64,000 nt of DNA from Bacteroidota bacterium (GTDB taxonomy: Bacteria; Bacteroidota; Bacteroidia; AKYH767-A; 2013-40CM-41-45): NCBI GenBank assembly GCA_003389385.1, contig QQVM01000017.1:10443-74442 (forward strand), given 5' to 3'. The position numbers and the translations under genes are program-made. Each line of letters opens with the position of its first letter. Position 1 is the first letter of the stretch. This document shows positions 1,275-33,394 of the stretch, one piece after another. The notes beneath the pieces are model-generated. The model saw nothing but the letters and a program-made list of their open reading frames with translations. It was not told the origin of the DNA and ran no database searches.

Positions 1275-1910
1275 TTGGGCGTCAGTCTTTTATTTACCGT
1301 TGCCGGGAGCCCTTCCGGCAAAAAGACGCAAGGGATTCATCAATTATTTAATTTCTTAAAAATGGCAATAGATTATTGCGATCAGGACCCCTTGGGAGAA
1401 GCTGATGTAATTGCCTGTCCGAAAAATGACCTCGTCGGCGGTTTTTCTGCTCTTGTAATCCTGGAAGACGGACACACAGTGGAAGACCCCTCGAGCGCAT
1501 CCGAGATAAATGCAAACATCAACACCGGCCACGCACACGTGGTAAAACGCTGCTCATTGGCGGTGGATGCGGCCACTCCTGTCGAACAGGAGTCGCTCGT
1601 GCCGTGCGAGACCCCTTCGCTACTTACCTACGATCGCGGCGGTCCGTACATCAACCCGAATGTCACACCGAACAATGTTTCGTTTCACGACAGGCTCTTT
1701 GATGGACGCGTATTCCCGGCGATGATCATCGCAAACTGCGGACGTGACGGTGTGATTGAAAAGGTGTTGTTCATTCAGGGTCGCATCAAGCTGAAAGGCT
1801 CGTTGATCGCTCCGAAAAACAACAATGAATTCATGCGCTTTGAAGGCAGTTATGCTTACAAATCCAGCAAGAATCCGACGTTGCACGATGCACCTCAGGG
1901 CATCTTCTGA
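1275..1910 (+). CDS. Hypothetical prophage protein
   Basis: 211-aa ORF followed by a strong rho-independent terminator. Confidence 0.35.
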   Translation: MGVSLLFTVAGSPSGKKTQGIHQLFNFLKMAIDYCDQDPLGEADVIACPKNDLVGGFSALVILEDGHTVEDPSSASEINANINTGHAHVVKRCSLAVDAATPVEQESLVPCETPSLLTYDRGGPYINPNVTPNNVSFHDRLFDGRVFPAMIIANCGRDGVIEKVLFIQGRIKLKGSLIAPKNNNEFMRFEGSYAYKSSKNPTLHDAPQGIF

Positions 1911-1975: not shown

Positions 1976-4276
1976 ATGAACCAAGGCATTTTACTTCCTG
2001 CATTCGGTAAGCGCGGATATTATTTCGCGGCATACAACCTTGCCTTTTCCATTAAGCACTTCAACAAGGACATTCCCATTGCCATATTGCACGGCAATAA
2101 ATTAAAAAAAGAATTACACCTGCCCCACATGCACACCGTGTTCGATCACCTCATTGAATTGCCACAGGAGGTGATGATGATGGGGGGGCGAATGAATCCG
2201 GCTGCAGTGAAACTCTGGGCGAGCGATTACAGCCCATTTGAATGCACAATTCAACTGGACGTGGATGCGCTTGCGATGCAGGATTTATCAAGCATATTCG
2301 ATGAGCTACAAAGCGCAGGAGGGTCTTTTTATTCGCATGTACTAGACCATCATAAGATCGGATCGGGCGATGACATTTCGTTCATGAAATGGGCCAGCGA
2401 ATCCATCATTCAACAGAAGTACAATTTGCCAGAAGGCGCCATGCTTCCCGGCACAAACTCCTCGTTTCTTTATTACAAAAATGACGAGACAGGAAGAAAA
2501 ATATTTCAGCGGGCAAGAGAAAATTTCCTTGATCCCATCCCGCTTCAACAGCTGCAAATGCAGTGGGGCGGAAGCCAGCCCGATGAACTTTATTTGAACA
2601 TCGCTCTTGCGCAAGAAGGCGTCAATGCAAAAACCGAAAAGGATTATTTGTTTCTGGCAGACAAGATTTCCAATCAATCACTCTCGTGGATCAAGGATAA
2701 TTATCCGCTGCTATGCTTGTACGGACCTGGCAACCGACCTCGCTTGATGTATCTGGAATGGTACGACCGGATGCTGCATTCGATGCATTCTGCTAAAAAG
2801 CTGAATCATGTTTTCAAGCATCACACAATACTTTCAGACAAGTACGCTAATGCGCCAAGCACACCAAAGCAAGTGAAGCAAAACATCGCACCCGTTCAGC
2901 CTGTGATTGCAGAGCCCGTCGCAAAAAGACCGGAAAAAATTCGCCTGCACGTTCCTTTTTTTGAGGGAAACGATGCGCTGCGAAAAGCCGAGATACTTAC
3001 ATGCCTGCACGAGAATTTGAAATGCGAACAGATCGAAAGAATCTTTCTGTATAGCGAACATGATTTTTCCGACAAAGTGCTTTCCCTCCATGAAATGGGC
3101 AGCGGAAAATTATCGCTCATTCGTTTTTCAAACCGCCCGACATACAGGTCCATCATCGAGAGCATCAACAGTAACAAGCCGGCTAAATTTGACATTTCCA
3201 TCATAGCAAATGCAGATATCTTTTTTCAGGACACATACCTGAACATGATCAAGGATGTGAATTTCGATTCGCGCGCATTGGCATTGTCGCGCTGGGATTT
3301 AAAGAGCGCAGACATTTCCGGAGCGGACCATAATGCAAAGCATTTCAGTTATGAATACTCTCAGGACCCTTGGATTTTCAAAGGAAAAATCCCGGCAATG
3401 GACTGCGACTTTCCATTTGGCATTCCAGCTTGTGACAATCGCATGGCCTATGAAATGAAAAGGCATTTCACTCGAGTAGACAATCCATCCATCCAAATTA
3501 AAACCTTTCACCTGCATTTGTCAAACGAAAGAACATACAGCCAAGCAGACAGGCTGCCGGGCAATGTATCTCCGATCAAGCCCTCGCATTACGCTCCAAT
3601 CAAAAAAAAGCGAATGCTGATGATTCAAAAAGGAAAAGTCGGAGACGTGCTGCTTTGCCTTCCCATCGCACGGGCGTATGCAGACAGATACACGGTCCAG
3701 TGGTTGCTGCCAAAGCAATACCACTGTCTTTTTGATTATGTGGACTATGTCGCCCCGGTTGAGAGGGCACAAGGCAAATATGATTACACGCTTGACCTTT
3801 CGTTCGGACAGGGCGGAAAGCCAGAGCAGTGGTGGAGGCGCGAGAAAAGCGGATTCCGCTCTTTTGTCGACGCAAAGTATCATCTGGCAGGAATTGACGT
3901 GAACGAAAAAAATAACCTGGTCTATGACCGGGATTATAAAAAGGAGAATGCGCTGCTGGAAATTATCCGCCAGAAAATTGGTGCGGGAGAATTTGCACTA
4001 ATGCACACTCAAAGCGATTACGGAACGCCCGTGAAGGTCAAAAGCGCAATGGCTGCCCTGGAATTCTCACCCATCGAAGGGTACACAATTTTTGATTGGC
4101 GCAAAGTAATAGAACAGGCTGCCGAAATTCATTGTATCGATTCCTCGCTTTGCAATTTCGTTGATGCTATCCCAGAGGTGCGAGACATTCCAAAGACATA
4201 CTATCCGACCGACAAAGTCCCGAACATTTGGGATCGCACAATATTGACCAACAACTGGATCATTCAGGAAAACTAA
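1976..4276 (+). CDS. Multidomain glycosyltransferase, 766 aa, with a GT9 (heptosyltransferase-like) C-terminal domain
   Basis: The N-terminal region resembles a nucleotide-sugar transferase. The C-terminal part contains KVGDVLLCLPIARAYADRY, which matches the iGDvllttPalraL signature of ADP-heptose:LPS heptosyltransferase (GT9). Confidence 0.5.
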   Translation: MNQGILLPAFGKRGYYFAAYNLAFSIKHFNKDIPIAILHGNKLKKELHLPHMHTVFDHLIELPQEVMMMGGRMNPAAVKLWASDYSPFECTIQLDVDALAMQDLSSIFDELQSAGGSFYSHVLDHHKIGSGDDISFMKWASESIIQQKYNLPEGAMLPGTNSSFLYYKNDETGRKIFQRARENFLDPIPLQQLQMQWGGSQPDELYLNIALAQEGVNAKTEKDYLFLADKISNQSLSWIKDNYPLLCLYGPGNRPRLMYLEWYDRMLHSMHSAKKLNHVFKHHTILSDKYANAPSTPKQVKQNIAPVQPVIAEPVAKRPEKIRLHVPFFEGNDALRKAEILTCLHENLKCEQIERIFLYSEHDFSDKVLSLHEMGSGKLSLIRFSNRPTYRSIIESINSNKPAKFDISIIANADIFFQDTYLNMIKDVNFDSRALALSRWDLKSADISGADHNAKHFSYEYSQDPWIFKGKIPAMDCDFPFGIPACDNRMAYEMKRHFTRVDNPSIQIKTFHLHLSNERTYSQADRLPGNVSPIKPSHYAPIKKKRMLMIQKGKVGDVLLCLPIARAYADRYTVQWLLPKQYHCLFDYVDYVAPVERAQGKYDYTLDLSFGQGGKPEQWWRREKSGFRSFVDAKYHLAGIDVNEKNNLVYDRDYKKENALLEIIRQKIGAGEFALMHTQSDYGTPVKVKSAMAALEFSPIEGYTIFDWRKVIEQAAEIHCIDSSLCNFVDAIPEVRDIPKTYYPTDKVPNIWDRTILTNNWIIQEN

Positions 4277-4278
4277 TT

Positions 4279-4986
4279 ATGGCAATTCAAGATACTACAG
4301 GAGCATCCATAGCAGGCACGCAACTATACAATGACATACTTGCAGTTGCCATGGTGGCCGAAAACATGAAGTTCATTGAAGTAGGCGCAGGAATTGGAGA
4401 TGGCATTACTCGGGCACTTATAAGAGGAATGTTATCCAAGCCAAATGCCATGAATCCTGGCAGCGGGCTACAGTTGCATTGCATCGAATTGTCCGAAGAA
4501 AAGTATCAGTTGCTTCAAAGCGAGCTCTCTCCTTATGGTGTATTTTCTTTCGCGCACAATGGCGTGTCTGCCGACCTTAGCTGGTACATGAGCGAAGAGG
4601 CTGTACGCGAGTTTTATCATAGTAAAAAAACCAGGGCGAGCGAGCGGCCAGTTGAAGTAATTCTCAGTTCGCGATCAAAAGAGCTTGAATACATAGACAG
4701 TAAGGGAGAGAGCTTCAGTCAAAACATACTGAATGAAATTAAAGGGGTATATGGTATTCCAGACGTATTGGTGATGAATGGAAGTGAATTTACCTCTGTT
4801 CAGGAAATGGAATTGATGATTGGTGCTCGCTACATTGTTCTAATTCAGAATGACAATTTAAAGAATTATGACAATCACAATGCACTGCTTGGTTCTGAAA
4901 GCGGATACAGACTTGTGATCGAAGGTCAGAGCCGGTTAGGCGGATACTCAATATTTCGAATACTGGAGTTGGAGGAGGGCCCATGA
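4279..4986 (+). CDS. Class I SAM-dependent methyltransferase
   Basis: Motif I is IEVGAGIGDGITR (GxGxG Rossmann). I moved the start to the ATG at 4279, just after the upstream stop. The 3' end overlaps the next gene (ATGA). Confidence 0.5.
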   Translation: MAIQDTTGASIAGTQLYNDILAVAMVAENMKFIEVGAGIGDGITRALIRGMLSKPNAMNPGSGLQLHCIELSEEKYQLLQSELSPYGVFSFAHNGVSADLSWYMSEEAVREFYHSKKTRASERPVEVILSSRSKELEYIDSKGESFSQNILNEIKGVYGIPDVLVMNGSEFTSVQEMELMIGARYIVLIQNDNLKNYDNHNALLGSESGYRLVIEGQSRLGGYSIFRILELEEGP

Positions 4987-5651
4987 GACTTGCAGGTGAA
5001 ATAATGGCCGCGGGCATGACCTGTGTATCTGATCTGAAGCAAAAAATTTTCCAAATGGTCACGCAGGAGAAGCCAATGCGCATACTCGAGACCGGCACCT
5101 ATCTTGGCACTGGATCTACGCGTGCGTTCGTTGATGCGGCCATATCATCTGGGCATTCGCTACAATTTCATACAATTGAGGTAAACGAAGGGCACTTTGA
5201 ATTGGCTAGGAAAAATCTATCAGACGCACTATTAAATTTCAAATGTTCATTTTACATGTGGAATGGACTGAGTGTTCCTGCATCATTAATTCCCTCAGAA
5301 ATTGATGTTGATTTCCCGGAAAGCGTCATTACTGACTCCTTCGATGAATCATTTTATCATAATGAGATTGTTGGATTTATTCAGGACGATTGCATTTCAA
5401 AGGCCATATTGGCGATGGGAGGATTCCCAGACATGATACTGCTTGACTCCGCTGGCCACATGGGCACAATAGAATTTTGCCACCTTATGTCTCTGCATGA
5501 CGGCATCACCCCATTCACTTTGATTCTGGACGACACCATGCATCGAAAGCACTACAAAACGATGGAGCTGGTTCGCAAAGATAAATCATTTAAAATCTTA
5601 CATGAGTCTGAGTCAAAATTTGGCTTTGCAATTATTCAATTTAAACCATGA
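4983..5651 (+). CDS. SAM-dependent methyltransferase-like protein (CmcI/TylF-like O-methyltransferase fold)
   Basis: MRILETGTYLGTGSTRAF resembles motif I of CmcI-family O-methyltransferases. Translationally coupled to both neighbours. Confidence 0.4.
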   Translation: MRLAGEIMAAGMTCVSDLKQKIFQMVTQEKPMRILETGTYLGTGSTRAFVDAAISSGHSLQFHTIEVNEGHFELARKNLSDALLNFKCSFYMWNGLSVPASLIPSEIDVDFPESVITDSFDESFYHNEIVGFIQDDCISKAILAMGGFPDMILLDSAGHMGTIEFCHLMSLHDGITPFTLILDDTMHRKHYKTMELVRKDKSFKILHESESKFGFAIIQFKP

Positions 5652-6448
5652 AGCGAATCGCATTCACAATTATGTACAACGCAGCGCACCATCTGCGCCA
5701 TTGCGATTTTGCGCTAAAAATGATCTCCATGTTTGATCATTGGATCATTGCCGAAGGCTTTGCTGGCAACAAAGGGTCTACCAGCTGGTGCAATGAATTG
5801 AACTGCCCGATCAGGTCAATTGATGACACAATCAATTTGATCGGCGATTATGCCGATAAGCAATCTGAGTGCGTTCGCCTTGTCTCGCCGCGAAAGTGGG
5901 AAAGCAAAGATGAAATGGTGAACGCTTGCATCGATATAGCCAGAGATATTATTGACGGGCAGGACTGCTTCTTATGGCAGGTTGACGCGGACGAGCACTG
6001 GACTGATGATCAACTGTCCAGAAGCGAGAAGTCAATCATTGCCTCTTGCGCCGACACAGGCATGTTTTTGTGCAATTATTTCATAGGAGAAAATTTGATC
6101 GTACGCGGTCAATGGGGCGAAGGACTGATGACGCCATACCGCAGGTTATGGCATTGGAAGGGACAGCGTTTCGCATCGCATGAGCCCCCTATACTTTCTG
6201 GCGGCAACGGAAAAGAAATGCTTCTGCAAGAGCGATTCGATCATTATGCGTACTTCTTTGAACACGACGTGAAATTTAAAGCCATGTACTATAGTGGCCA
6301 TGAGCACGTGTATCGTAATTGGAAAAAAATTCAATCGGGATCTGTTAAATTTCCTGCGCCTATATCTACGCTTTTCTCAGGAAAAATGTTTTCCTCCACC
6401 AAATCAAGAATCTACCAAATCAAAAATCATGAGAAAGAGGCTATTTAA
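5648..6448 (+). CDS. Putative GT2-like glycosyltransferase
   Basis: The N-terminus RIAFTIMYNAAHHL resembles the GT2 start (IvIPvyN...L), and there is a DxD-like WQVDADEHW. Overlaps the upstream gene by 4 nt. Confidence 0.35.
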   Translation: MKRIAFTIMYNAAHHLRHCDFALKMISMFDHWIIAEGFAGNKGSTSWCNELNCPIRSIDDTINLIGDYADKQSECVRLVSPRKWESKDEMVNACIDIARDIIDGQDCFLWQVDADEHWTDDQLSRSEKSIIASCADTGMFLCNYFIGENLIVRGQWGEGLMTPYRRLWHWKGQRFASHEPPILSGGNGKEMLLQERFDHYAYFFEHDVKFKAMYYSGHEHVYRNWKKIQSGSVKFPAPISTLFSGKMFSSTKSRIYQIKNHEKEAI

Positions 6449-6552: not shown

Positions 6553-8442
6553 ATGCAGCAAGAAATCCAGCATATTAATTCCCTGCTCGAGCAGGCGAAG
6601 GCAAAAATTAAAAAAGGCGTCTCGATTAAGAAGTCTGTGAATGATGTAAGCGTTCGCGAGTACCAGGAATTTAATCCGCTTTATGCGCGCGCATGTCAGA
6701 TACGCGACAAGATCGCAGTGCACGCCGAAGGAGATGAGTTTCCGGAGCATCTATTTGTCGTTCGTGCCCCGCGCATGACAAAGGATGAATTTGATTACAT
6801 CAAATCCAACTACAAGAATGAAACGCGCCCGGTGTATCTGGATTTTTTCAATACCGTAATGAGAATTTTCCATGATAGCAACTGGTCAATCGACTGGCCC
6901 TCCTTTGATGAAGACGGTAATCCGCTTGCTCAATACATGGAGAATTTGCCCATCTACGGATCGGAGGAAACTTTTACGCGCGATATTGTCACGCACGCCA
7001 AGCTGACAGATGCCATGGGCGTGATCGTGGTAAAGCCGCGCACGATCAAAACAATTAAGAATGATCAGGGCGAGGAAGTGATCGATAACCGGGAAAGATT
7101 CGAGCCTCTGCCATATTATTTCCGATGCGATCAAGTGCTGTTTTACGAGGAAGGCGAGTATTACTTCCTTCTGTCTGACGAAAAATCAGAAGTAGATTAT
7201 GGTGGCCGAAAATCAAAAGAGGGTGTTGTATTCGAATATCACGACAAAAATCACTTTTACCGAATAGAGCAGTACGGGAGGAAAAGCGACTATAATTTCA
7301 GAGTCATCCATCAATATTCTCATAACTGGAACCGCGTTACAGTGCACCGATTAAAAGGTGTTCCACGTGTAACAAAAGATGGTGTGCTACATGTTTCTCC
7401 TTTTTATTTCGCAGTTGATATTCTTGATCTTGTCACATTGAATGCGACCAATCTGCAAACGATCATCAACAATGCAGCGTATCCGTATCGCATTGTCTAC
7501 GGCGATGAATGCGATTTTCAAATCACACTCTCGGACAATACTGAAGCCGCCTGTAACGGGGGAAAGATTTTCAATTCGGATTTGAATGCTACCATTACGT
7601 GTCCTTCCTGCAATGGCAGCGGGCTAAAAAGCAGACTCTCGCCTCTTGGTGTGATGATTATCCGTGCGCCAAGCACTGAATTCAAGGGTGATGCCGAACT
7701 CAAGCAAGATCCAATCAAATGGGTGGAGCCCTCGACCAATCAGCAGGATTTTTTAAAGAAAAAAATTGCAAGCGATGAAATTCGTGCGCGCAAAATCATA
7801 CACCTGCATTCTGGTAATTCGGAGGCCTCTGCCGGGCCGGACTTGGCTACGAAAATGGTCTTGGATTTAAAAGCCCTGTATGCATTTCTAAAGCCGATCT
7901 CTGATCAGATATTTGACCTCAAGTCTTTCATCATCTGCGCAAGTGGATGGATACGTTACGCCGAAGAATCAAAAAAAATGAATCCGGTGATTTCTTATCC
8001 GGTATCATATGACTTTAAAACCGAGACGGATTATATTTCGCAGATATCAGAAGCGATCAAGGCGGGACTTCCTCCGATGGTCATCCATTCAATCATGTTC
8101 CGGTTTTTACAGTCTCTTTACTACAACGAAAAGCGCACGGCAGACGTATTCTCGCTCATTGTTTCGGCAGACAGACTGCTCGTCTTTGATTCGCAAACCA
8201 TACAAAGCAAGATCAGGGACGGTCTGGCTGAAAAATGGGAGTCAGTGCTGCACGACAGCGCGATCATTTTCGTGAATGAGATGCTGATTGCAGAGCCGGA
8301 ATTCTTTGATAAATACAGCCCTGAAGAAAGGAAAGAAAAGCTGATCGAGGCGGCAAAGAAAAAGGCCGCAGACATTGAGGCCGCACGAAAAGCTTCTGCC
8401 GGAGCTTCGGCTCAGTCCCGCGTAAATGAAATCCTGAATTGA
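6553..8442 (+). CDS. Phage portal protein (putative)
   Basis: 629-aa protein directly upstream of a Mu-F-like head morphogenesis gene and overlapping it; no Walker A motif, which argues against terminase. The assignment rests on size and position. Confidence 0.45.
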   Translation: MQQEIQHINSLLEQAKAKIKKGVSIKKSVNDVSVREYQEFNPLYARACQIRDKIAVHAEGDEFPEHLFVVRAPRMTKDEFDYIKSNYKNETRPVYLDFFNTVMRIFHDSNWSIDWPSFDEDGNPLAQYMENLPIYGSEETFTRDIVTHAKLTDAMGVIVVKPRTIKTIKNDQGEEVIDNRERFEPLPYYFRCDQVLFYEEGEYYFLLSDEKSEVDYGGRKSKEGVVFEYHDKNHFYRIEQYGRKSDYNFRVIHQYSHNWNRVTVHRLKGVPRVTKDGVLHVSPFYFAVDILDLVTLNATNLQTIINNAAYPYRIVYGDECDFQITLSDNTEAACNGGKIFNSDLNATITCPSCNGSGLKSRLSPLGVMIIRAPSTEFKGDAELKQDPIKWVEPSTNQQDFLKKKIASDEIRARKIIHLHSGNSEASAGPDLATKMVLDLKALYAFLKPISDQIFDLKSFIICASGWIRYAEESKKMNPVISYPVSYDFKTETDYISQISEAIKAGLPPMVIHSIMFRFLQSLYYNEKRTADVFSLIVSADRLLVFDSQTIQSKIRDGLAEKWESVLHDSAIIFVNEMLIAEPEFFDKYSPEERKEKLIEAAKKKAADIEAARKASAGASAQSRVNEILN

Positions 8443-9353
8443 TGCGCTCGGTAGAGGATATCATCGAAAAGAAAATCAAGCTGCTGGAATCAGTCGGCGA
8501 AGAGTTTCTGGAGCAGGTGCAAAAAACACAACTCAAGTTATATCGTGAGCTGCTTGAAATACTTGGATCACTGGAAATTTCAAAGGGTCGCATTGTGCTA
8601 AATACAGAAAACCTTCGCATTACTGAAGATGTACTCGAAGAATTGCGCGAGATGCTATTTGGCTCTGAATACATCGAGGCCGTGCGATCGGTGGCAAGCG
8701 GTATGGAAAAAGGAAAGGAATTGTCAGATGAATATTTTCAAAAGGCTTTCCCTGATTTTTCCCAAAGCGAATTGGCGGATAAGATTTTTGAGAATTCGAA
8801 AAAAAATGCCGTGGATCTGCTGGCAGGAGCAACGCCTGAAACAGGATTTCTGCAGGAGTTGAAAGATGAAATTTCGCTTGCAGTCAATAGCGGCGCATCC
8901 TGGCAGGACACTGTGGATCGGCTCCGGCTGATTGCAATCGGAGATGAAACACAAGAAGTCGACGGCAAGCTTTTAAAGTATGCCAAGCAAGTAGCCAGTG
9001 ATAGCATTGCCATTTCAGATCGCTCTTACAATAGCGCGATTGCAGATGAATTGGAGTCAGAATGGTTTCTTTTTGCGGGCGACGTACTGCCCACATCGCG
9101 GCAGTTCTGCATCGAGCGTTCATGGAAATATTTCCATTACAAAGAGGTGGAAAGCTGGGCAGAGCTCGAATGGTCTGGGAAAAATGATGCGACCAATAAA
9201 GAGACAATTTATTCCACGCTAGGAGGATGGCGTTGCCAGCATTCACTCATTCCCGTATCGATCGACACCGTGCCTCGCGATGTAATTGAAAGAAACATGG
9301 CCAACGGAAACTTTACTCCGAGTGAATTTGAAAAGCAAGAATTGGAATTATAA
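8439..9353 (+). CDS. Phage head morphogenesis protein (Mu gpF / SPP1 gp7 family)
   Basis: C-terminal conserved region with the W-R-C motif (LGGWRCQHSLIPV) typical of Phage_Mu_F domains; sits after the portal gene. Confidence 0.6.
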   Translation: MMRSVEDIIEKKIKLLESVGEEFLEQVQKTQLKLYRELLEILGSLEISKGRIVLNTENLRITEDVLEELREMLFGSEYIEAVRSVASGMEKGKELSDEYFQKAFPDFSQSELADKIFENSKKNAVDLLAGATPETGFLQELKDEISLAVNSGASWQDTVDRLRLIAIGDETQEVDGKLLKYAKQVASDSIAISDRSYNSAIADELESEWFLFAGDVLPTSRQFCIERSWKYFHYKEVESWAELEWSGKNDATNKETIYSTLGGWRCQHSLIPVSIDTVPRDVIERNMANGNFTPSEFEKQELEL

Positions 9354-10725: not shown

Positions 10726-11814
10726 ATGAGTGGATCAAACCTGATAGCAAACTGTCCTGACATTCAGGACGAGCTCAATAATTATTTCTTGGAGTGCGAC
10801 GCGAGCGCGCTCCGTCAACCTGCCCCGTTCTTTGATTTCCTTTGGAGCGACCTGAACCGTAGCGGCATCCAGCAGATGATCGCGCCAGGTGGCGGAAAAA
10901 TCAAAAAAGTAGTGCTTCGCTATGATCAGCTGATCATGGAAGACGAGGCCACCGAGGTGAACATGCTCGAGAAAAGCTGCACTGCGGAAACCAAGCGCGG
11001 CGAACTGACCGAGAGCTACACGATCGATCCGTCATCCGGATTTCAATTTGAAGAATTGATCTCAGCCGCTGATTACGCTTACGGCTGCAAGTCAACCGAG
11101 TGGTATCTGGCGAAAAAAATCCAGAAACTCATCGACGCAACCGTGCGTAAGGCACAGACAGTGCTGGCAGAAAGGGCCGTGGCACTGGTCGGCAACTGGG
11201 ACGCAGAAGTAGATCCTGTTGTAGACGTAGGAGGGGTGGACTTTCTAAAAGTGGCCACAAAGAAAACCGGCTCATCTGATATCAATCCTGGCGCGTTCGA
11301 GGACATAGATGCGGCTGCATTGTTGACCAATTTCTGCACAACTCCCTTGATTTTCTCTGGAACGTCCCTGTGGAAGTATTATAGGACAATGCTTGCGGGA
11401 TGCTGCTCAGCGCAGGGCATCGACCTTTCTGAGATGCTCTCTCAGTACGGAAAGGCAGTCATGTACGACCGCAAGCTGGCAGCAGCATTGGGCGGAAATG
11501 ATTTTGCCGTGATGACTATGCCTAAAGTGCTGCAGCCTATTTATTACACGGCAAATGATGATTTGAATCATGATGTGCTAGCTGCAATCGGCGGAAAAGC
11601 CGTGTTCACGGGCGCAAACTACATGAAGCTGGTCGTGCAAGATCCGCAATCTGGCTTGCCGGTGGATCTGACCATTGCAGATAACTGCGGCGATGTGTCG
11701 CTCATCACACGCGCTTGCGTGGATGTAAAGCCGTTGCCTACGGATATATTCCCTTCTGCGCACAGCATGAGCGGTGTGACATATTTCGCAGGCATAAAGG
11801 TGGTGAATTCCTGA
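10726..11814 (+). CDS. Putative major capsid protein
   Basis: 362-aa protein directly after the scaffold-like gene; size and position fit an HK97-fold capsid protein; no motif-level confirmation. Confidence 0.45.
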   Translation: MSGSNLIANCPDIQDELNNYFLECDASALRQPAPFFDFLWSDLNRSGIQQMIAPGGGKIKKVVLRYDQLIMEDEATEVNMLEKSCTAETKRGELTESYTIDPSSGFQFEELISAADYAYGCKSTEWYLAKKIQKLIDATVRKAQTVLAERAVALVGNWDAEVDPVVDVGGVDFLKVATKKTGSSDINPGAFEDIDAAALLTNFCTTPLIFSGTSLWKYYRTMLAGCCSAQGIDLSEMLSQYGKAVMYDRKLAAALGGNDFAVMTMPKVLQPIYYTANDDLNHDVLAAIGGKAVFTGANYMKLVVQDPQSGLPVDLTIADNCGDVSLITRACVDVKPLPTDIFPSAHSMSGVTYFAGIKVVNS

Positions 11815-15397: not shown

Positions 15398-16522
15398 ATG
15401 AAGAATATTTTACAAAACAATGTGGTAGGATGGGCCGCTAGGCTTATTCTATTTTTCATACTGATTTGCATAGGCATCTCAATGGCAAGGTGTCAGACCC
15501 GTGACAGCATTGTCACCACAATCACCAATCATTCAAAGCAAGTGTGCTATGACAGCACATGGCAGACGGTGAAGGTGGATACCTTCAAAGTGCCTGTGAA
15601 TACAGTTGACGCCCCCATCAGAGGTATGTATGTCAGCACTCAGGTTAAGATTGGTGACATCGCATCAGAAGAAGCTTTCTTAAAGTGGTGCAAGAGCAAG
15701 GGTGTGAACATGGTAAATTTCTATGCTCGCAGCTTCTTATACGATTCATCCAAGCGTTCACAGCTTGCTGCTTTTGTGAAGAAAGCAAAAGAGCAGTACG
15801 GAGTGCTGGCCGTCACGGTAGATGTAAGGCTAACCGATAATCGGGAATACCCCGGATGGGTGGCATACTTTGAGAAGTACAAGGGCACTTCATCCATGAT
15901 AGAACCGCTGGCAGAATTTGAGCCTTATTCATCCAGCATGGGCCAAAGCTCAGACGTGTACTTCGCAAGCTATACCGATAAATACGCTCACTTTTTCATG
16001 ATGCTACGCAAAATGTCTGAGCTGACTAAGCAGTATGGTGTTAAGTGGAATTGGTATCAGGGATGGGTGGGTAATAAATATCTATCAGGATCGGAGAGCG
16101 ACATTCAGAAGGCGAATGATTCCCTTGTGAAGTATGTGGATCGGGTGTTCGTATCAAACTACGTTTCCAAATCAGATTACATCAGTACCAATCCCTCTTA
16201 CGGTGCTTGGGATAACCGCATGGACAAGCGACTAGAACGCATTGCTTTGGGTATGGCTAAGATGAGGCCGGGAGCTAAAATGGATATTGTGGAAATTGTT
16301 TCACTGGAACTCAAGAAGTGGGGAGCTGGAAATGACTTCTTAGGTGAAGTATATGCTTGTCCGGTGAACACTACTAATATGTGTCATTCATTCTACGGAA
16401 GCAGGTATGACAAGGCAGTGGAGGAGTACAATAAATCATCTGCAAACATATTGAAATATACAGTCCTTGTTGGACGGACAATGTTTTACCAAAAGTACGC
16501 TGTATTGGCGCAGCCAAACTAA
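15398..16522 (+). CDS. Membrane-anchored hypothetical protein (possible glycoside-hydrolase-like TIM barrel)
   Basis: N-terminal TM helix (LILFFILICIGISMA); 374 aa; W/Y-rich and secreted-enzyme-like, but no confirmed motif. Confidence 0.35.
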   Translation: MKNILQNNVVGWAARLILFFILICIGISMARCQTRDSIVTTITNHSKQVCYDSTWQTVKVDTFKVPVNTVDAPIRGMYVSTQVKIGDIASEEAFLKWCKSKGVNMVNFYARSFLYDSSKRSQLAAFVKKAKEQYGVLAVTVDVRLTDNREYPGWVAYFEKYKGTSSMIEPLAEFEPYSSSMGQSSDVYFASYTDKYAHFFMMLRKMSELTKQYGVKWNWYQGWVGNKYLSGSESDIQKANDSLVKYVDRVFVSNYVSKSDYISTNPSYGAWDNRMDKRLERIALGMAKMRPGAKMDIVEIVSLELKKWGAGNDFLGEVYACPVNTTNMCHSFYGSRYDKAVEEYNKSSANILKYTVLVGRTMFYQKYAVLAQPN

Positions 16523-16524
16523 CC

Positions 16525-17205
16525 TTGTTTCATGTGGAAATCTACAATTTCATCCTTAAACACAAAGACTTTATTTCAGGTCTTGTTGGAGTTGCAACAC
16601 TGTATGTTTTATATAAATCGAACATTCATAAGCACATAATAATGTTCTGGAAAAGCAGAATAGAGCCTAAGATGTGGGTGTCGGCGAAAGTAATTAATAG
16701 CAACCTTTCTGAGATGAAAGAGATGATTGCTACTTCGATCGAAAACCAGAATAAGCTTTCGTCTGCGATTAAGGAACTGCACGCCGATTATCAGGAAGTT
16801 AAGAATATGGTAGCTCCCAATGGGGGAAGCAGTTTGATAGACCTTGCAAACTGGCTTTATGCAAAATCAATAGCGCAGGACTTCGATAATGAAGCGGCAA
16901 TACTGGCCCAGGCGAATAAATCAGGGCACTTAATGAATGTGAATAGAATGTTCACAAGAGTCACAGGGCGCACCGAAGGAGAACTAATTGGCAACGGATG
17001 GGTGAATGCGATTGTCGGGCAGGACAGGCAAAGAGTCATACATGAATGGAAGGATGCGCTGGCGGAGGGGAGAGATTACCTGAGTGAGTTTTCCTTATCA
17101 GACCTTGATGGAAATGAATCGGCGGTAGAGGCTCGTTTCAGCAGAATGTACGACAAGAAGGGGAATGTACTTGGTTATTACGTCAGGATGCACTTAATAG
17201 GTTAA
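16525..17205 (+). CDS. PAS-domain protein
   Basis: C-terminal region HLMNVNRMFTRVTGRTEGELIGNGWVNAIVGQDRQRV matches the PAS core (reaction ... GW ... hP ... D). Confidence 0.5.
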   Translation: MFHVEIYNFILKHKDFISGLVGVATLYVLYKSNIHKHIIMFWKSRIEPKMWVSAKVINSNLSEMKEMIATSIENQNKLSSAIKELHADYQEVKNMVAPNGGSSLIDLANWLYAKSIAQDFDNEAAILAQANKSGHLMNVNRMFTRVTGRTEGELIGNGWVNAIVGQDRQRVIHEWKDALAEGRDYLSEFSLSDLDGNESAVEARFSRMYDKKGNVLGYYVRMHLIG

Positions 17206-19108: not shown

Positions 19109-20338
19109 ATGAAAAAATTAACCTGGTCAACCAAGACCGTGAAGGTGAAAGACCTTAAACCATTTGAAATAAACCCAAGAAAAATATCGGATGAAAAAAG
19201 GCAGAAGTTAATACAAAGCCTTGAAAAGTTTGACTTGGCGGAAATCCCTGCCGTAAATACGGACATGAAAATAATCGGAGGCAATCAAAGAATTGCAGCC
19301 CTTGTGTTACTTGACAGGGGCGATGAGCTGATCGATGTTCGTGTCCCGAGCCGTAAGCTATCGGAGAAGGAGGTCAAAGAATACAATCTGATTAGCAACA
19401 CCCATGCAGGTGAATGGGACTTTGAAATACTGGACATGGAGTTTTCGGATATAGATTTGGAGGATATCGGATTTGATATTCATGGGCTTCAAAGTTGGAA
19501 TTTAGCGCAAAATCAGCAAATGGCATCAGGAGTGGAGGATGATGATTTTGACGTGCCGCTTGGCGGGTCAAATACCGATATTGTTGAGGGCGACATCTTT
19601 GATATAGGCCGACATCGCCTGATGTGTGGCAGCAGCACCCAGACCGATACGTGGGAGCGGTTAATGGGGCAGGAAATGGCCGACCTTGTAATAACCGACA
19701 CACCTTACAATGTAGCTTATGTCGGAAAGACGAAAGATGCCATGAAAATTCAAAATGATGCCCAATCGGATGGCAATTTTTACCAATTCCTTTATGACTT
19801 ATATACGGCTCTCGGAAGTTACACGAAAAAGGGGGTGGCTTGGTATGTTTGGCACGCTGATTCTGAAGGGGCGAATTTCCGCAAAGCAATGGCTGATTCA
19901 GGGATAATGGTAAAACAATGTTTAATTTGGGTAAAAAATAGCCTGGTGATGGGGCGACAGGATTACCATTGGGCGCACGAGCCATGCCTTTACGGATGGA
20001 AAGAAGGCGCGGCTCACAAATGGTATTCAGATCGGAAACAAACAACCGTTTTAAACTTTGACAGGCCGTCAAGGAATGCCGAACATCCGACCATGAAGCC
20101 GGTTCCGCTTATTGCTTACCAGATGGGCAACAGCAGCAAGGCAGGAGACATAGTGTGCGATGGGTTTGGAGGAAGTGGTACGACAATGGTTGCCGCACAT
20201 CAAATGAATAGAACATGCAGGATGATGGAGCTTGACCCGAAATACTGTCAGGTAATCATTGACAGAATGATCAAGCTCGATCCAGCAATCGAAATAAAAA
20301 GAAACGGTAAATCATGGAACTCACAGAAGAATTCCTAA
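19109..20338 (+). CDS. ParB-like nuclease domain fused to a DNA N6-adenine/N4-cytosine methyltransferase
   Basis: N-terminal ParB/Srx-like region (KDLKPFEINPRK..GGNQRIAAL). Methylase motif IV is ITDTPYN (DPPY-like) and motif I is DGFGGSGTT. Confidence 0.7.
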   Translation: MKKLTWSTKTVKVKDLKPFEINPRKISDEKRQKLIQSLEKFDLAEIPAVNTDMKIIGGNQRIAALVLLDRGDELIDVRVPSRKLSEKEVKEYNLISNTHAGEWDFEILDMEFSDIDLEDIGFDIHGLQSWNLAQNQQMASGVEDDDFDVPLGGSNTDIVEGDIFDIGRHRLMCGSSTQTDTWERLMGQEMADLVITDTPYNVAYVGKTKDAMKIQNDAQSDGNFYQFLYDLYTALGSYTKKGVAWYVWHADSEGANFRKAMADSGIMVKQCLIWVKNSLVMGRQDYHWAHEPCLYGWKEGAAHKWYSDRKQTTVLNFDRPSRNAEHPTMKPVPLIAYQMGNSSKAGDIVCDGFGGSGTTMVAAHQMNRTCRMMELDPKYCQVIIDRMIKLDPAIEIKRNGKSWNSQKNS

Positions 20339-20744: not shown

Positions 20745-21848
20745 TTATGTCCGAAACTTTTTAAATTCTGCATCCATCAGCGGATTGGTGACCTTGGCAT
20801 AGATGGCTACGGTGCGCCGAGATATGCCCATGTATTCGGCCACGACATCCGAGGTAATGCCAGATTCCAGGCAGCGCACAGCAAAGGTATGCCTGCCCAC
20901 GTGTGATGTGATGGGCATATCAATCTCCGGATTACACATTTTTGCAATCGCTTTCAAATTTTCGTTTACGGTTGGCTCCGCAGGACAGGGCCTCATATGA
21001 AGTAGCTTTTCTGTGAGCTGTTTCAATTTATCATGCATCTGAAGGGATACCAGTTGGCCGTTCTTTTTTGCGCGAAGAATCAAGCGATCTTCCCGTATAA
21101 ATTCGGAAGAAAACCTGAGCCAGTCTGAGATGCGAAGCCCGCTGTAGCATCCCAAAAGGAAGTACATGCCGGAGACTAGCATTGTTTCGCTCATGGGAAG
21201 CTTCAGTGCGCGCTCCCATGCCTGTACCTGCGAAAGCGTAAGATGTATCCGATCCGGATTTTGGTATTTGGGCATAGGATACTTTTTGAATGGGTCTTCG
21301 CTTGTCAACCTATTATGCATGGCATCCAGATATACGGTGCGCATTTTTTTCCAAAGCTTATGAATTGTGTTTCCCTCAAGCGGCACCCGGGCAAGGTGCT
21401 GATGAAACAGCGCAAGCCAGCGCGGTGTAATGCCGTGCAGAGTAATGGATTTATCAAACTCCTGAATTCTGGCCAATGCCTGACGGTACGTGTCCAGGGT
21501 GCTGCCCTCCAGCACATCTCTCTTTCCGTCGATATATCCGGAAAAGTACTCGCAGAAACTCCGGTTCACGCCCTGGATGAAATCCGGCGTCACCGGTACG
21601 TCCATCAGCTGCATTCGCCGAATTTCCTGCTCGATTTCGGAAATCCTTTTTTTGATCTTCAAATTGATCATCTGATGCTGCGGATGACTCTTTCGAACTT
21701 CGCTGCCAGTCCAATCATCCGGTGAAATGAATTCATTCAATGACTTGACAATTCGCTTTCCGGATATCCTGATAATGATTTTCAAGGCCCGCTTGCCCTC
21801 TTTGTTCTTGCCGCCCATCAGCCGCGGATGTATCGTAACTTTCTGCAT
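20745..21848 (-). CDS. int: Tyrosine-type site-specific integrase
   Basis: C-terminal catalytic residues HVGRHTFAV and IYAKV (R-H-R-Y family). The start is trimmed to the ATG at 21848, because the longer ORF runs into the tRNA (the translated tRNA gives GFESRPDR). Confidence 0.8.
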   Translation of the reverse strand: MQKVTIHPRLMGGKNKEGKRALKIIIRISGKRIVKSLNEFISPDDWTGSEVRKSHPQHQMINLKIKKRISEIEQEIRRMQLMDVPVTPDFIQGVNRSFCEYFSGYIDGKRDVLEGSTLDTYRQALARIQEFDKSITLHGITPRWLALFHQHLARVPLEGNTIHKLWKKMRTVYLDAMHNRLTSEDPFKKYPMPKYQNPDRIHLTLSQVQAWERALKLPMSETMLVSGMYFLLGCYSGLRISDWLRFSSEFIREDRLILRAKKNGQLVSLQMHDKLKQLTEKLLHMRPCPAEPTVNENLKAIAKMCNPEIDMPITSHVGRHTFAVRCLESGITSDVVAEYMGISRRTVAIYAKVTNPLMDAEFKKFRT

Positions 21849-21990
21849 CGCCCTGTAGTGTGGCCACGCTGTAGCTACAGGGTGTAGCCAAATTCGTAGC
21901 CGTAAAGTGTCGGAAATGTAAATATTTGCCGGATAATAAACGCTATAAAATAGAAAATCCCGCGAAAAAGCGGGATTTGAACTAATTAAG

Positions 21991-22064
21991 CGGTCCGGAC
22001 GGGACTCGAACCCGCGACCCCATGCGTGACAGGCATGTATTCTAACCAACTGAACTACCGAACC
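21991..22064 (-). tRNA. tRNA-Asp (GTC)
   Basis: Cloverleaf folded by hand: acceptor GGTTCGG/CCGGACC, anticodon stem CATGC/GCATG with loop CTGTCAC, T-arm GCGGG-TTCGAGT-CCCGT; 74 nt with no encoded CCA. Confidence 0.75.
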
Positions 22065-33351: not shown

Positions 33352-33390
33352 AAGAGACCGGCTTTTGCGTGGTCTCTTTTTTTATTTTTA
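33352..33390 (+). terminator. Rho-independent terminator
   Basis: Stem aagagacc / ggtctctt followed by ttttttattttt. Confidence 0.55.
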
Positions 33391-33394
33391 GTGC

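Follow-up and report, generated by a model that had tools for sequence, protein, structure and literature searches.

The locus analysed here, part of a 64,000-nt stretch of Bacteroidota DNA that we refer to as the window, raises the question of what a set of glycosyltransferase (GT) and methyltransferase (MT) genes might do directly 5′ of the putative portal gene of a prophage. A preliminary description had proposed decoration of the virion by glycosylation and O-methylation, with modification of surface polysaccharide as the alternative. Our analysis gives about an even chance that the cassette builds a short O-methylated glycan on at least one virion protein.

Prophage setting and layout of the cassette

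The cassette consists of four tightly packed + strand genes, and all four ORFs and both stop/start overlaps were confirmed where the preliminary description had placed them. The features of the region are as follows.

6-1226: 5′ neighbour of the cassette
1275-1910 (likely start 1362): 5′ neighbour; the product from 1362 to 1910 (+) is B211, a conserved protein of about 182 aa directly 5′ of the cassette
1924-1968, +: terminator-like hairpin, GC-rich and followed by a T-run, between B211 and the cassette
1976-4276, +: gene 1, three-domain protein of 766 aa
4228-4986 (ORF; likely start ATG 4279), +: gene 2 (M252), 235 aa from 4279
4983-5651, +: gene 3 (M222), 222 aa
5648-6448, +: gene 4 (G266), 266 aa
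6553-8442, +: putative portal, 629 aa, starting 104 nt 3′ of the cassette
8439-9353, +: Mu-F-like head-morphogenesis protein, 304 aa
9707-10561: 3′ neighbour
10726-11814: 3′ neighbour
20745-22064 (likely start near 21850), -: integrase abutting tRNA-Asp, right prophage end
21990-22064: tRNA-Asp (ARAGORN)

A 2-nt spacer separates the TAA stop of gene 1 from the ATG of gene 2, and genes 2/3 and 3/4 are joined by ATGA overlaps at 4983/4986 and 5648/5651. The same gene order is seen in dozens of independent viral contigs, and the four-gene arrangement is therefore not due to chance.

Location within a prophage, and not in host DNA, is supported by an integrase that adjoins tRNA-Asp, by Bacteroidota housekeeping genes beyond it and by downstream genes whose orthologues belong to portal and Mu-F/head-morphogenesis families. 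Past 22.4 kb, the flanking DNA codes for what we take, by eye, to be LpxH-, LpxK-, PNP- and T9SS C-terminal-domain-like proteins. GC content is 42-50% over 1-21 kb, lower and more variable (33-45%) beyond 22 kb and mostly below 40% beyond 41 kb. At 44-46%, the cassette has the GC content of the adjoining head genes, which makes it unlike a recently acquired moron; it shares strand and tight coupling with the portal, Mu-F and scaffold-like genes, and lies about 16 kb from the integrase. The same prophage encodes a ParB-N6/N4 DNA methylase.

The reported position directly 5′ of the portal and Mu-F-like genes was borne out. The portal model phrog_7376 (7e-25) matches seven of nine portal-family sequences (the window protein and eight orthologues), the window protein itself having no match in the PHROG scan; tblastn links the putative portal to that of Polaribacter phage P12002L (4e-8), and its profile matches portal 9wwa in the PDB (E 0.025). 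Orthologues of the Mu-F-like protein match head-morphogenesis PHROGs 758, 2468 and 324 and Pfam Phage_Mu_F. Direct homology support is absent for the "capsid" label previously given to 10726-11814. B211 has no matches in the PDB or among cultured phages and may be an acceptor or a structural protein.

The 65-nt region between B211 and the cassette folds at -25.9 kcal/mol into an 11-bp stem followed by AATTTTTA; this hairpin is not listed by the consensus terminator scan, which allows only loops of 3-8 nt. At the equivalent junction, relatives L001, L003 and L042 also have a hairpin and T-run, L006 has a hairpin lacking a clear T-run, and tRNA genes fill the site in L005 and L044. The hairpin probably marks an operon boundary. 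Since the scan, with the same loop range, detects no terminator between gene 4 and the portal, we infer that the cassette is probably co-transcribed with the head genes.

Enzymes encoded by the cassette

Routine HMM searches against Pfam, NCBIfam and PHROGs returned no significant match for any of the four window proteins (best match Mannosyl_trans3, E 0.077). Taken literally, the GT and MT labels of the preliminary description thus find no homology in HMM searches of the window proteins, but structure prediction with fold search and scans of orthologues largely support them. The cassette is predicted to encode, in order, GT-A, GT-A, O-MT, O-MT and GT2 enzyme classes: four or five sugar-adding domains overall, itemised as D1, D2, possibly D3, and gene 4, and two sugar-methylating enzymes (genes 2 and 3). 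DxD and SAM motifs are invariant across the cassette protein families. Gene 1 is divided as follows.

Residues 1-296: D1, GT8/glycogenin-like GT-A domain, DxD at D95/D97
Residues ~320-540: D2, second GT-A domain
Residues ~545-766: D3, conserved α/β domain, candidate GT

The AlphaFold (AF2) model of gene 1 (pLDDT 92.4) shows tandem GT-A domains, and its motifs are conserved in some 63 full-length homologues. Foldseek matches in the PDB comprise LARGE1 (1.5e-12), the chondroitin polymerase K4CP, LH3, Mimivirus R699, heparosan synthase, glycogenin (TM ~0.6) and GlyE; in BFVD they are giant-virus GT and MT proteins, with PBCV-1 among the best viral ones. Because glycogenin, GlyE and LH3, which glycosylate proteins, are found together with the polysaccharide polymerases K4CP and LARGE1, these matches do not reveal the type of acceptor. 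The GT9 label once attached to residues 545-766 drew no support from profile searches: the D3 profile has no PDB match, and its hhalign comparison with GT9-like regions gives a probability of 1%.

Gene 2 is predicted to adopt a COMT-like, class I SAM-dependent O-methyltransferase fold, in a family outside Pfam coverage. Its AF2 model (pLDDT 94.9) matches TrmR, Rv0187, SafC and COMT at about 1e-7 (TM ~0.55) in a Foldseek search of the PDB, its profile finds TrmR/YrrM among PDB sequences at E 0.003-0.009, and the GxGxG motif I and acidic residues are conserved. Many of its 279 homologues are domains within large multidomain proteins, in which Pfam scans reveal GT, MT and sulfotransferase domains. 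One cellular homologue is located in a Wzy_C/GT4 polysaccharide locus; other homologues lie in a flagellar-glycosylation-like island beside FliE and a TPR-GT41 protein, which indicates that this type of enzyme is used for cellular protein glycosylation.

By its orthologues, gene 3 classes as an O-methyltransferase of the COMT/Methyltransf_3/24 type. It is paralogous to gene 2, and the HMMs of M222 and M252 match each other. The orthologue profile finds O-methyltransferases in the PDB (3ntv, 7e-4; COMT family around 7e-3), and the motif ETGxYxGxGT is kept in the family. Methyltransf_3 matches 7 of the 17 orthologues weakly, Methyltransf_24 two and RMNT_CmcI one, so that of the earlier "CmcI-like O-methyltransferase" the second term stands and the first is too specific. 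Gene 4, judged from its orthologues, is a GT2-like GT-A glycosyltransferase with DxD at D113/D115: Glycos_transf_2 is found in 13/16 (best 1e-5) and Glyco_tranf_2_4 in 6/16, and the QVDADE motif is invariant in the family. Many large proteins join its domain to MT domains of the M252 and M222 types, and between 47 and 56 of 150 homologues carry M252-G266(-M222) as a single polypeptide, which links genes 2-4 functionally.

Transmembrane (TM) segments are predicted in none of the four proteins, and we saw neither a flippase or polymerase nor a membrane component of the GtrA/B/C type in the cassette, whose chemistry is probably cytoplasmic and self-contained.

Conservation across relatives

Relatives are encoded on 168 IMG/VR contigs. 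We surveyed the pre-portal slot by sampling through the Mu-F gene, and not through the GT, counting loci with at least 3 kb 5′ of the portal (n=41). D1 precedes the portal in 38 of these loci, so that the position beside the portal, which the preliminary description had left to comparison with related prophages, is indeed kept; two of the three loci lacking D1 were inspected, and both are contigs that end inside long cassettes of the L044/L051 type. In essentially every relative sampled from this uncultured phage lineage, the same pre-portal slot is filled by a glycan cassette. B211 stands beside D1 in 36 of the 41 loci, the slot being incompletely covered in the other five.

Pairwise identities of D1 follow those of the portal with r 0.94 and those of Mu-F and B211 with r 0.92 each, and its mean identity of about 42% equals theirs; by sequence, D1 is a core gene that co-diverges with the structural genes. 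The other cassette genes are swapped freely between relatives, alternative contents including Methyltransf_24/CmcI-type MTs, GT25, Methyltransf_21, GH130 fusions, a DegT aminotransferase and a hexapeptide acyltransferase, and group-2 relatives carry D1 alone. With only three weak matches among 185,579 species-representative genomes, the cassette family appears to be a viral gene family nearly absent from bacterial genomes.

Given such a cassette at the same spot across the sampled relatives, it is probable that the phage uses it to cover its own virion with a methylated glycan. Conserved position and co-divergence with structural genes make a structural role the simplest explanation, and an initiating GT that is kept while the extenders vary suggests that the acceptor, too, is conserved and belongs to the phage. 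Exchange of extending and modifying enzymes among relatives would place different glycans on different phages of the lineage.

Target of the cassette and comparison with known systems

Under virion decoration, the cassette would be a phage-encoded cytoplasmic glycan-building set, probably transcribed with the head genes. D1 (GT8-like) would probably place the first sugar, taken from host nucleotide-sugars, on an acceptor protein that the phage lineage conserves. Chain extension would fall to D2, perhaps D3, and the GT2-like product of gene 4, and the two COMT-like methyltransferases would O-methylate sugars as a cap. The acceptor, the order of steps, the sugars and the effect on the virion are all elements that we infer. 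Counting against this scheme, GT8/GT2-type enzymes and sugar O-MTs also fit envelope glycan work, and the temperate nature of the window phage makes cassette expression in the lysogen possible.

Modification of a host envelope glycan is the alternative that these points favour, and we regard it as a serious rival, though a less likely one. The soluble enzymes would work at the inner membrane, on its cytoplasmic face, with lipid-linked intermediates of LPS, LOS or capsule as substrates. The surface polysaccharide would be changed or capped, in the lysogen for superinfection exclusion or serotype conversion, or late in infection so that progeny avoid adsorption to debris. GT8- and GT2-family enzymes and sugar O-methyltransferases do work on LPS cores and O-antigens at that face without TM segments, and the Waa and WbdD systems employ GT8/GT2-type and O-methylation enzymes in LPS core/O-antigen synthesis and capping; the cassette, however, has no membrane partner of the flippase, Gtr or acyl/ligase kind. 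The polysaccharide polymerases K4CP, LARGE1 and heparosan synthase among the top fold matches, and the gene 2 homologue in the Wzy_C/GT4 locus, also agree with envelope work, but the family is almost missing from bacterial genomes. The element is temperate, yet the cassette heads the morphogenesis genes far from the integrase, with head-gene GC and no terminator detected before the portal, and, unlike conversion morons, it occurs in essentially all sampled relatives with D1 in step with structural proteins. Variable content could follow variable host glycans; the universal part, however, is the likely initiating GT, which is hard to fit with host-varying acceptors. The surface-polysaccharide conversion module first proposed as the alternative is weakened accordingly.

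Glycosylation of a non-virion target, whether a host protein (receptor, pilus, T9SS cargo), a phage non-structural protein or a small molecule, would render the portal-adjacent position a historical accident of the lineage. We consider this improbable: the gene 2 homologues in the flagellar-glycosylation-like island speak for it, but no specific target has positive support, and the kept position and co-divergence fit a structural role most simply. Hypermodification of phage DNA, with GTs adding sugars to hydroxymethylated bases to evade restriction as in T-even/5hmC systems, is highly improbable, for although phage GTs making diverse DNA glycans are documented (bioRxiv 10.1101/2023.12.21.572611; PMC13326640) and the prophage encodes the ParB-N6/N4 DNA methylase, no thymidylate-synthase-like hydroxymethylase, C5-methyltransferase or TET/JBP dioxygenase is recorded within ±10 kb (window, L001/L003), the methyltransferases are of the COMT type acting on small molecules or sugars and not DNA MTases, the cassette lies among head and not replication genes, and relatives add DegT, acetyltransferase and GH130, a sugar-nucleotide tailoring typical of glycan pathways.

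Among known systems, the best solved-structure matches to D1+D2 are LARGE1, E. coli K4CP and PmHS2, which carry two GT-A domains per chain and polymerise repeating disaccharides; sequence identity is about 10%, and the global TM is low due to different domain arrangement. GtrABC-type O-antigen conversion modules and prophage GT/acetyltransferase loci share with the cassette prophage-borne glycosyltransferases that alter a glycan. Gtr systems consist of membrane proteins (a flippase, a bactoprenol GT and a polytopic serotype-specific GT) and are usually accessory genes adjoining the integrase or att site, whereas the cassette proteins are without TM segments, lie in the head module and are essentially universal in the lineage.

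The mycobacteriophage precedent originally invoked, with GT/MT genes in the morphogenesis module, applies to cluster O and not to cluster F1, in which GT genes lie near the 3′ genome end, outside the head module (PMC11256854). In Corndog (cluster O), gp35-gp38 are an O-methyltransferase and three glycosyltransferases, likewise tightly packed, co-oriented and placed among head-morphogenesis genes beside the portal (PMC4351075; L087), and the enzymes are not virion components (PMC4351075). The cassette has no detectable sequence homology to them, so that the precedent is one of analogy only. Corndog genes follow the portal and precede the protease, whereas the cassette precedes the portal, and they encode four single-domain proteins, against the three-domain fusion, pair of MTs and GT2 of the cassette; the phage lineages differ, as do the hosts (Actinomycetota against Bacteroidota).

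PBCV-1 offers soluble multidomain viral GTs with separate small SAM methyltransferases: A111/114R (three GT domains), A064R (GT-GT-MT) and A061L (MT) build a capsid glycan that is O-methylated in the cytoplasm (PMC9614988). Across chloroviruses, as here, a three-domain GT is kept and other enzymes vary (PMC9614988). PBCV-1 is, however, a eukaryotic giant virus whose genes are dispersed and not gathered in one cassette, whose glycans are N-linked to Vp54 and whose enzymes resemble those of the cassette in fold and not in sequence. Decoration of the virion by the Bacteroidota cassette would be analogous, not homologous, to both Corndog and PBCV-1.

The four-gene cassette and its predicted enzymes

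Four consecutive ORFs on the plus strand lie between the conserved gene for B211 (1362-1910) and the portal gene (6553-8442) of the prophage in the left part of the window. Their coordinates and tight coupling, as set out in the preliminary description, are borne out: ATGA overlaps join genes 2 and 3 and genes 3 and 4, with spacers of 65 nt ahead of gene 1 and 104 nt behind gene 4. Since the first ATG of gene 2 is found at 4279, its product is most likely 235 aa long.

Genes of the cassette (window coordinates, strand, product)
1976-4276, plus strand: gene 1, 766-aa protein with domains D1, D2 and D3; TAA stop codon at 4274-4276
4228/4279-4986, plus strand: gene 2, protein of most likely 235 aa (M252)
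4983-5651, plus strand: gene 3, 222-aa protein (M222)
5648-6448, plus strand: gene 4, 266-aa protein (G266)

None of the four proteins has a significant match in Pfam, NCBIfam or PHROGs, the best being Mannosyl_trans3 on residues 4-110 of gene 1 (E 0.077). Taken by itself, this result would remove the glycosyltransferase (GT) and methyltransferase (MT) assignments of the preliminary description, but other evidence supports them. Because routine HMM annotation was blank, we turned to orthologue scans and structure prediction, and the proposed folds held up, for genes 1 and 2 through AlphaFold2 models and Foldseek and for genes 3 and 4 through orthologue scans.

Gene 1 has about 63 full-length homologues (34-51% identity), all without a Pfam domain. 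Its AlphaFold2 model, built on 56 homologues (mean pLDDT 92.4), comprises D1 (residues 1-296, pLDDT >90 across the domain), a disordered linker, D2 (~320-540) and D3 (~545-766). A sequence search of the PDB with the 766-aa protein gave no useful match; Foldseek against the PDB retrieved chains with two GT-A domains, namely LARGE1 (1.5e-12), E. coli K4 chondroitin polymerase, the lysyl hydroxylase LH3, COLGALT1 and Mimivirus R699. Among predicted viral structures, the best matches were GT/MT proteins of giant viruses (Pithovirus, Cedratvirus, PBCV-1, CroV and Bodo saltans virus) and proteins of uncultured tailed phages. D1 alone matched glycogenin (GT8; E 4e-8, TM(target) 0.55-0.64) and the GT8 enzyme GlyE, and in its DxD motif (LDVDAL) D95 is invariant and D97 at least 90% conserved across the 56 homologues. 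By its modelled fold, D1 is predicted to be a GT8-like retaining GT-A enzyme (Rossmann-like GT-A, glycogenin/LgtC-like); it has no significant match to a GT8 sequence model, Pfam Glyco_transf_8.

In D2, residues N412, D414 and H512 are invariant or nearly so. Homologues of D2 at 27-34% identity were observed in Synechococcus phage S-SKS1 (H1/H2, 33379-33996), adjoining a nucleotide-sugar epimerase, and in the uncultured huge phages LR7565xx (H3-H5), metagenomic phages of 480-735 kb; their presence in a cyanophage and in huge phages indicates that D2 circulates among unrelated phages. D3 is a well-predicted α/β domain with the conserved signature QxGKxGD…HCIDSS. Its earlier labelling as GT9 (heptosyltransferase-like GT-B) is unsupported: a D3 profile (20 sequences) found no PDB match at E≤10, hhalign against 26 GT9-like regions returned a probability of 1%, and the D3 HMM matched none of the GT9-bearing multidomain proteins.

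Gene 2 belongs to a family for which Pfam has no model; 279 homologues turned up in a set of 1.8 billion representatives. Its AlphaFold model (pLDDT 94.9) matched TrmR, Rv0187, SafC and COMT in Foldseek at about 1e-7 with probability 1.0. Residues G36, G40, G42 and E70 of gene 2 are invariant, as are E36, G38, G42, G44 and E66 of gene 3, consistent with a SAM motif I (E/DxGxGxG) and an acidic residue after β2 in both proteins. The gene 2 HMM cross-matches the gene 3 family, identifying the two as paralogues, and a seven-stranded Rossmann-like MT fold is predicted for gene 2 by its model and for gene 3 via this homology. In the PDB, a profile of gene 3 orthologues picked up COMT/Methyltransf_3-type O-methyltransferases, with 3ntv scoring 7e-4 and many others around 7e-3, and 17 orthologues scanned individually gave weak matches to Methyltransf_3 (7/17) and Methyltransf_24 (2/17), with E values of only 5e-3 to 6e-4. 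The window proteins of genes 2 and 3 have no Pfam match, falling short of the curated threshold for Methyltransf_3/24. The CmcI model (PF04989, rhamnosyl O-methyltransferase), after which gene 3 had been called CmcI-like, matched a single orthologue of the 17, at E 0.042.

The window protein of gene 4 itself has no family match, and a G266 profile gave no useful match in the PDB. Thirteen of its 16 orthologues matched Glycos_transf_2 (PF00535, best 1e-5) and six Glyco_tranf_2_4 (PF13704), and D113 and D115 of its DxD motif are invariant. These features point to a GT2-like GT-A enzyme, with membership at superfamily level only.

Fusions link the three smaller genes. Among the best 150 homologues of gene 2, 47 carry a G266-type GT directly downstream in one polypeptide and in about nine others the order M252-G266-M222 is complete (e.g. 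P0126, P0146, P0163 and P0216), from which we conclude that the three small window genes correspond to one conserved MT-GT-MT module, here split into separate genes. The fused form is a widespread, uncharacterised module. Ten multidomain homologues of gene 2 that were scanned also contained Glyco_transf_9, TPR, sulfotransferase or further MT domains. Eight proteins of 1,200-2,200 aa with the M252-G266-M222 order (P0126, P0146, P0162, P0163, P0195, P0206, P0215 and P0216) all have a GT9-like region (8/8, phmmer), and TPR or sulfotransferase domains were seen in other M252 homologues scanned. Stand-alone homologues of gene 2 occur in a Wzy/GT4 polysaccharide locus, in a flagellar-glycosylation-like island beside FliE and a TPR-GT41 protein, and on a virus-like contig that also encodes GT8 and Methyltransf_24 proteins. 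Enzymes of this type are general methyltransferases for the tailoring of sugars, and their context gives no pointer to the acceptor. No transmembrane segment is predicted in any cassette protein (maximum Kyte-Doolittle 19-residue mean ≤1.26 in all four).

Prophage setting and transcription

The surroundings of the cassette are those of an integrated prophage, as indicated by an integrase next to a tRNA gene, portal and Mu-F proteins recognised via orthologues, a DUF5675 protein, a ParB-methylase, a shift in GC content and a host flank.

20745-~21850, minus strand: integrase ORF, abutting tRNA-Asp (21990-22064)

GC content is 42-50% over 1-21 kb and 33-45% beyond 22 kb, where it is more variable and mostly below 40% past 41 kb. 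From 22.4 kb onwards lie genes that we take, by eye, to encode an LpxH-like protein, LpxK, a purine nucleoside phosphorylase and a T9SS C-terminal-domain protein, and the flank reads as Bacteroidota chromosome; a PDB sequence search with its 1027-aa ORF found nothing. MAGs recorded as 'Bacteroidetes bacterium' encode the identical proteins, on a 413-kb contig. The window does not extend to the left end of the prophage. The possibility that the cassette is host DNA was ruled out by its synteny with more than 100 viral contigs.

The window proteins for the portal, Mu-F and capsid candidate have nothing significant in Pfam, NCBIfam or PHROGs. Of nine sequences of the portal family scanned, seven matched phrog_7376 'portal protein' (7e-25), and the window portal is similar to the protein annotated as portal in Polaribacter phage P12002L (4e-8). 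Relatives of the protein at 8439-9353 match head-morphogenesis PHROGs and Phage_Mu_F. The gene at 10726-11814, whose product has 362 aa, had been called capsid; this label is positional only, reflecting its place after a coiled-coil scaffold-like gene, and it is not established, there being no match in the PDB (profile) or in 50,697 cultured phage genomes. The same genomes held no match to B211, whose profile also gave no useful PDB match, or to the upstream proteins of 654 aa and 962 aa in the relative L001 (L001 2457-7306). A large terminase was looked for near the portal and none was located. The GenBank phage records contain no cultured member of the lineage, whose packaging genes lie elsewhere or escape recognition.

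Downstream are genes for a DUF5675 protein, small membrane proteins, a PAS-domain protein and a ParB-N6/N4 DNA methylase. The PAS protein (16525-17205, 226 aa) combines a hydrophobic N-terminal stretch with a clearly recognised PAS domain (PAS_3, 2e-10) and lies in the late/lysis region, an unusual position for a sensor domain in a prophage. Between the structural genes and a holin-like gene, positions 15398-16522 encode a 374-aa protein with an N-terminal signal or transmembrane segment and no family match, which may be a secreted or envelope-acting phage protein. The 409-aa methylase (19109-20338) adjoins the integrase and carries a Pfam N6_N4 DNA methylase domain at residues 192-383, its N-terminal region being presumably ParB-like, as judged by eye. 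Its relatives occur on more than 590 viral contigs, and the 80 loci fetched belong to unrelated phages with no other gene in common with this prophage.

The spacer ahead of gene 1 folds at -25.9 kcal/mol into a GC-rich hairpin of 11 bp, with a T-run behind it. At the same junction, the related loci L001, L003 and L042 have a hairpin and T-run, L006 has a hairpin without a clear T-run, and L005 and L044 have tRNA genes. No terminator-like site was found in the interval between gene 4 and the portal. With a hairpin before the cassette and no such terminator-like site before the portal, the cassette probably opens the transcription unit of the head genes and does not resemble a moron insulated by a promoter and a terminator of its own. 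A sigma-70 promoter scan, which is unsuited to Bacteroidota, was uninformative, with 17 sites against 17.8 expected. The junction tRNAs, both between the B211 homologue and the glycosyltransferase, comprise an amber suppressor with anticodon CTA (L044 9916-9989) and an aberrant tRNA-like gene (L005 9863-9951), which hints at TAG recoding in part of the phage lineage.

A conserved slot with variable content

Relatives of gene 1 were found on 168 IMG/VR viral contigs; on the bacterial side, 185,579 species-representative genomes yielded no more than three contigs with relatives, all of them short and from MAGs. The 80 loci fetched share the order B211, cassette, portal, Mu-F, scaffold-like gene, capsid candidate and following genes. 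To remove the bias of a GT-based search, the lineage was re-sampled through an alignment of Mu-F. This gave 41 new loci in which at least 3 kb of sequence precede the portal, and D1 occupied the slot in 38 of them, showing that the position next to the portal noted for the window is kept in relatives. The two that were checked of the three apparent exceptions are contigs that end inside long cassettes of the L044/L051 type. Four rearranged loci (L232, L234 10004-16828, L208 and L209) have the order Mu-F-like gene, B211, D1, MT and portal; in such reshuffled modules, the cassette travels with B211 and the portal.

Within the slot, the content varies. Window-type cassettes combine D1, D2 and D3 with one or two MTs and G266, and a second group (contigs of ~34-37 kb) has D1 alone and one MT. 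Of the MTs in this second group, 20/21 match Methyltransf_24/Methyltransf_3, with Methyltransf_24 reaching 2e-20 and passing the Pfam threshold, and 9/21 match the CmcI model (best 9e-7), always below their Methyltransf_24/3 scores; they are putative functional equivalents of the window MTs. Longer cassettes include a D1-GH130 fusion, GT25, Methyltransf_21, a DegT aminotransferase, a hexapeptide acyltransferase and GT2 genes. Fusions of D1 to GH130 (β-mannoside phosphorylase-like, PF04041) were seen in at least 45 protein clusters (P0064-P0116; L044 10001-11983; L051 3628-5517), in the same portal-adjacent slot of other phages.

Across 71 non-redundant loci, the pairwise identity of D1 correlates with that of the portal (r 0.94), Mu-F (0.92) and B211 (0.92) as well as the structural genes do among themselves (r 0.92-0.97), and mean identities are alike for D1 and the structural genes (42-44%). 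By this co-divergence, D1 belongs to the core genes that the lineage inherits vertically; the remaining cassette genes are exchanged among relatives. The alternative of a recently acquired moron was rejected, since the GC content of the cassette matches that of neighbouring genes and D1 co-diverges with the structural genes. Searches with the window integrase against all fetched loci (tblastn and jackhmmer; ~±10 kb around the cassette or Mu-F) gave no match.

Possible acceptors of the proposed glycan and comparison with known systems

The operon recognised in the preliminary description is confirmed as an observation, and its interpretation as a virion-decoration system is supported in part, setting aside the labels GT9, CmcI and capsid. 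We consider the chances about even that the cassette glycosylates the virion. This reading is favoured by soluble enzymes with no membrane partner, a position at the head of the morphogenesis genes, matching GC content and universality in the lineage. Furthermore, the sole invariant component is the domain best placed as the initiating transferase, which argues for a conserved acceptor, that is, one belonging to the phage. D1 would start a glycan on this acceptor, and the variable enzymes of the cassette would extend and cap it.

The same folds and methyl capping also serve LPS core and O-antigen synthesis (GT8-type and GT2-type enzymes), the top fold matches include polysaccharide polymerases and the element is temperate, all of which would suit modification of a host envelope glycan. 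We judge this reading a serious but less likely rival, given the location of the cassette, its universality, its co-divergence with structural genes and the lack of a flippase or Gtr-type partner, no Gtr or flippase family having been detected in any cassette scanned. If true, it would describe an unusual conversion module, soluble and core to its lineage, and still worth knowing. Action on another protein or a small-molecule target has a poor chance in our estimation, and glycosylation of DNA is highly improbable, with no base-hydroxymethylating or TET-type gene recorded nearby and with MTs of sugar or small-molecule type.

Glycosylation of the virion, if it extends to this lineage, would make phage-encoded virion glycosylation phylogenetically widespread, and at least one lineage would have it as a core trait while its glycan is hypervariable. 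It would bear on host range, stability, recognition by immune systems or grazers and particle adhesion in nature, and many virome CAZymes now called 'auxiliary metabolic' would have to be re-read as serving virion decoration. A broader proposal, which we make tentatively and with the chances somewhat against it, is that the whole uncultured Bacteroidota-associated lineage has an obligatory 'glycan island' as the first element of its head-gene block, in which an inherited initiating GT is combined with exchanged extenders and methylators, giving each phage its own methylated glycan on capsid or connector. Virion glycosylation would then belong to the ancient core of a Gram-negative phage lineage and be no mycobacteriophage curiosity, and its glycans would diversify as O-antigens do, selected by whatever recognises virions (host defences, grazers, mucus or particle adhesion). 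The analysis provides several handles on these questions: D1, a conserved GT that may initiate the glycan; a few conserved proteins (B211, the portal and the capsid candidate) as candidate acceptors; and an MT-GT-MT module encoded by three genes here and by one fused protein in many other sequences.

Giant eukaryotic viruses glycosylate their own particles with their own enzymes. In the chlorovirus PBCV-1, A111/114R (a three-domain GT present in all chloroviruses), A064R (GT-GT-MT) and A061L (a small MT), all soluble, build and O-methylate the capsid glycan (PMC9614988). Operons of the type found in mycobacteriophage Corndog place GT and O-methyltransferase genes within the virion morphogenesis module, as in the window (PMC4351075). 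The likeness of the cassette to both PBCV-1 and Corndog is in working principle only; comparison with Corndog gp35-38 by HMM and BLASTP revealed no homology (all E > 0.1). Gtr-type conversion modules differ in consisting of a membrane flippase (GtrA), a bactoprenol GT (GtrB) and a polytopic GtrC, whereas the window cassette has no predicted transmembrane segments. In the portions of the literature searched, mycobacteriophages are essentially the only tailed phages whose particles have been shown to be covalently glycosylated (Freeman et al. 2023 via PMC11600133, PMC11256854, PMC12619734). Since GT/MT cassettes in phage structural modules are already known, the window cassette does not represent a novel type of system but a clear variant of a known one. 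Its sequences are unrelated to those of the characterised examples, its lineage is dark, uncultured and associated with Bacteroidota, and it combines a core initiator with otherwise hypervariable genes at a constant position ahead of the portal.
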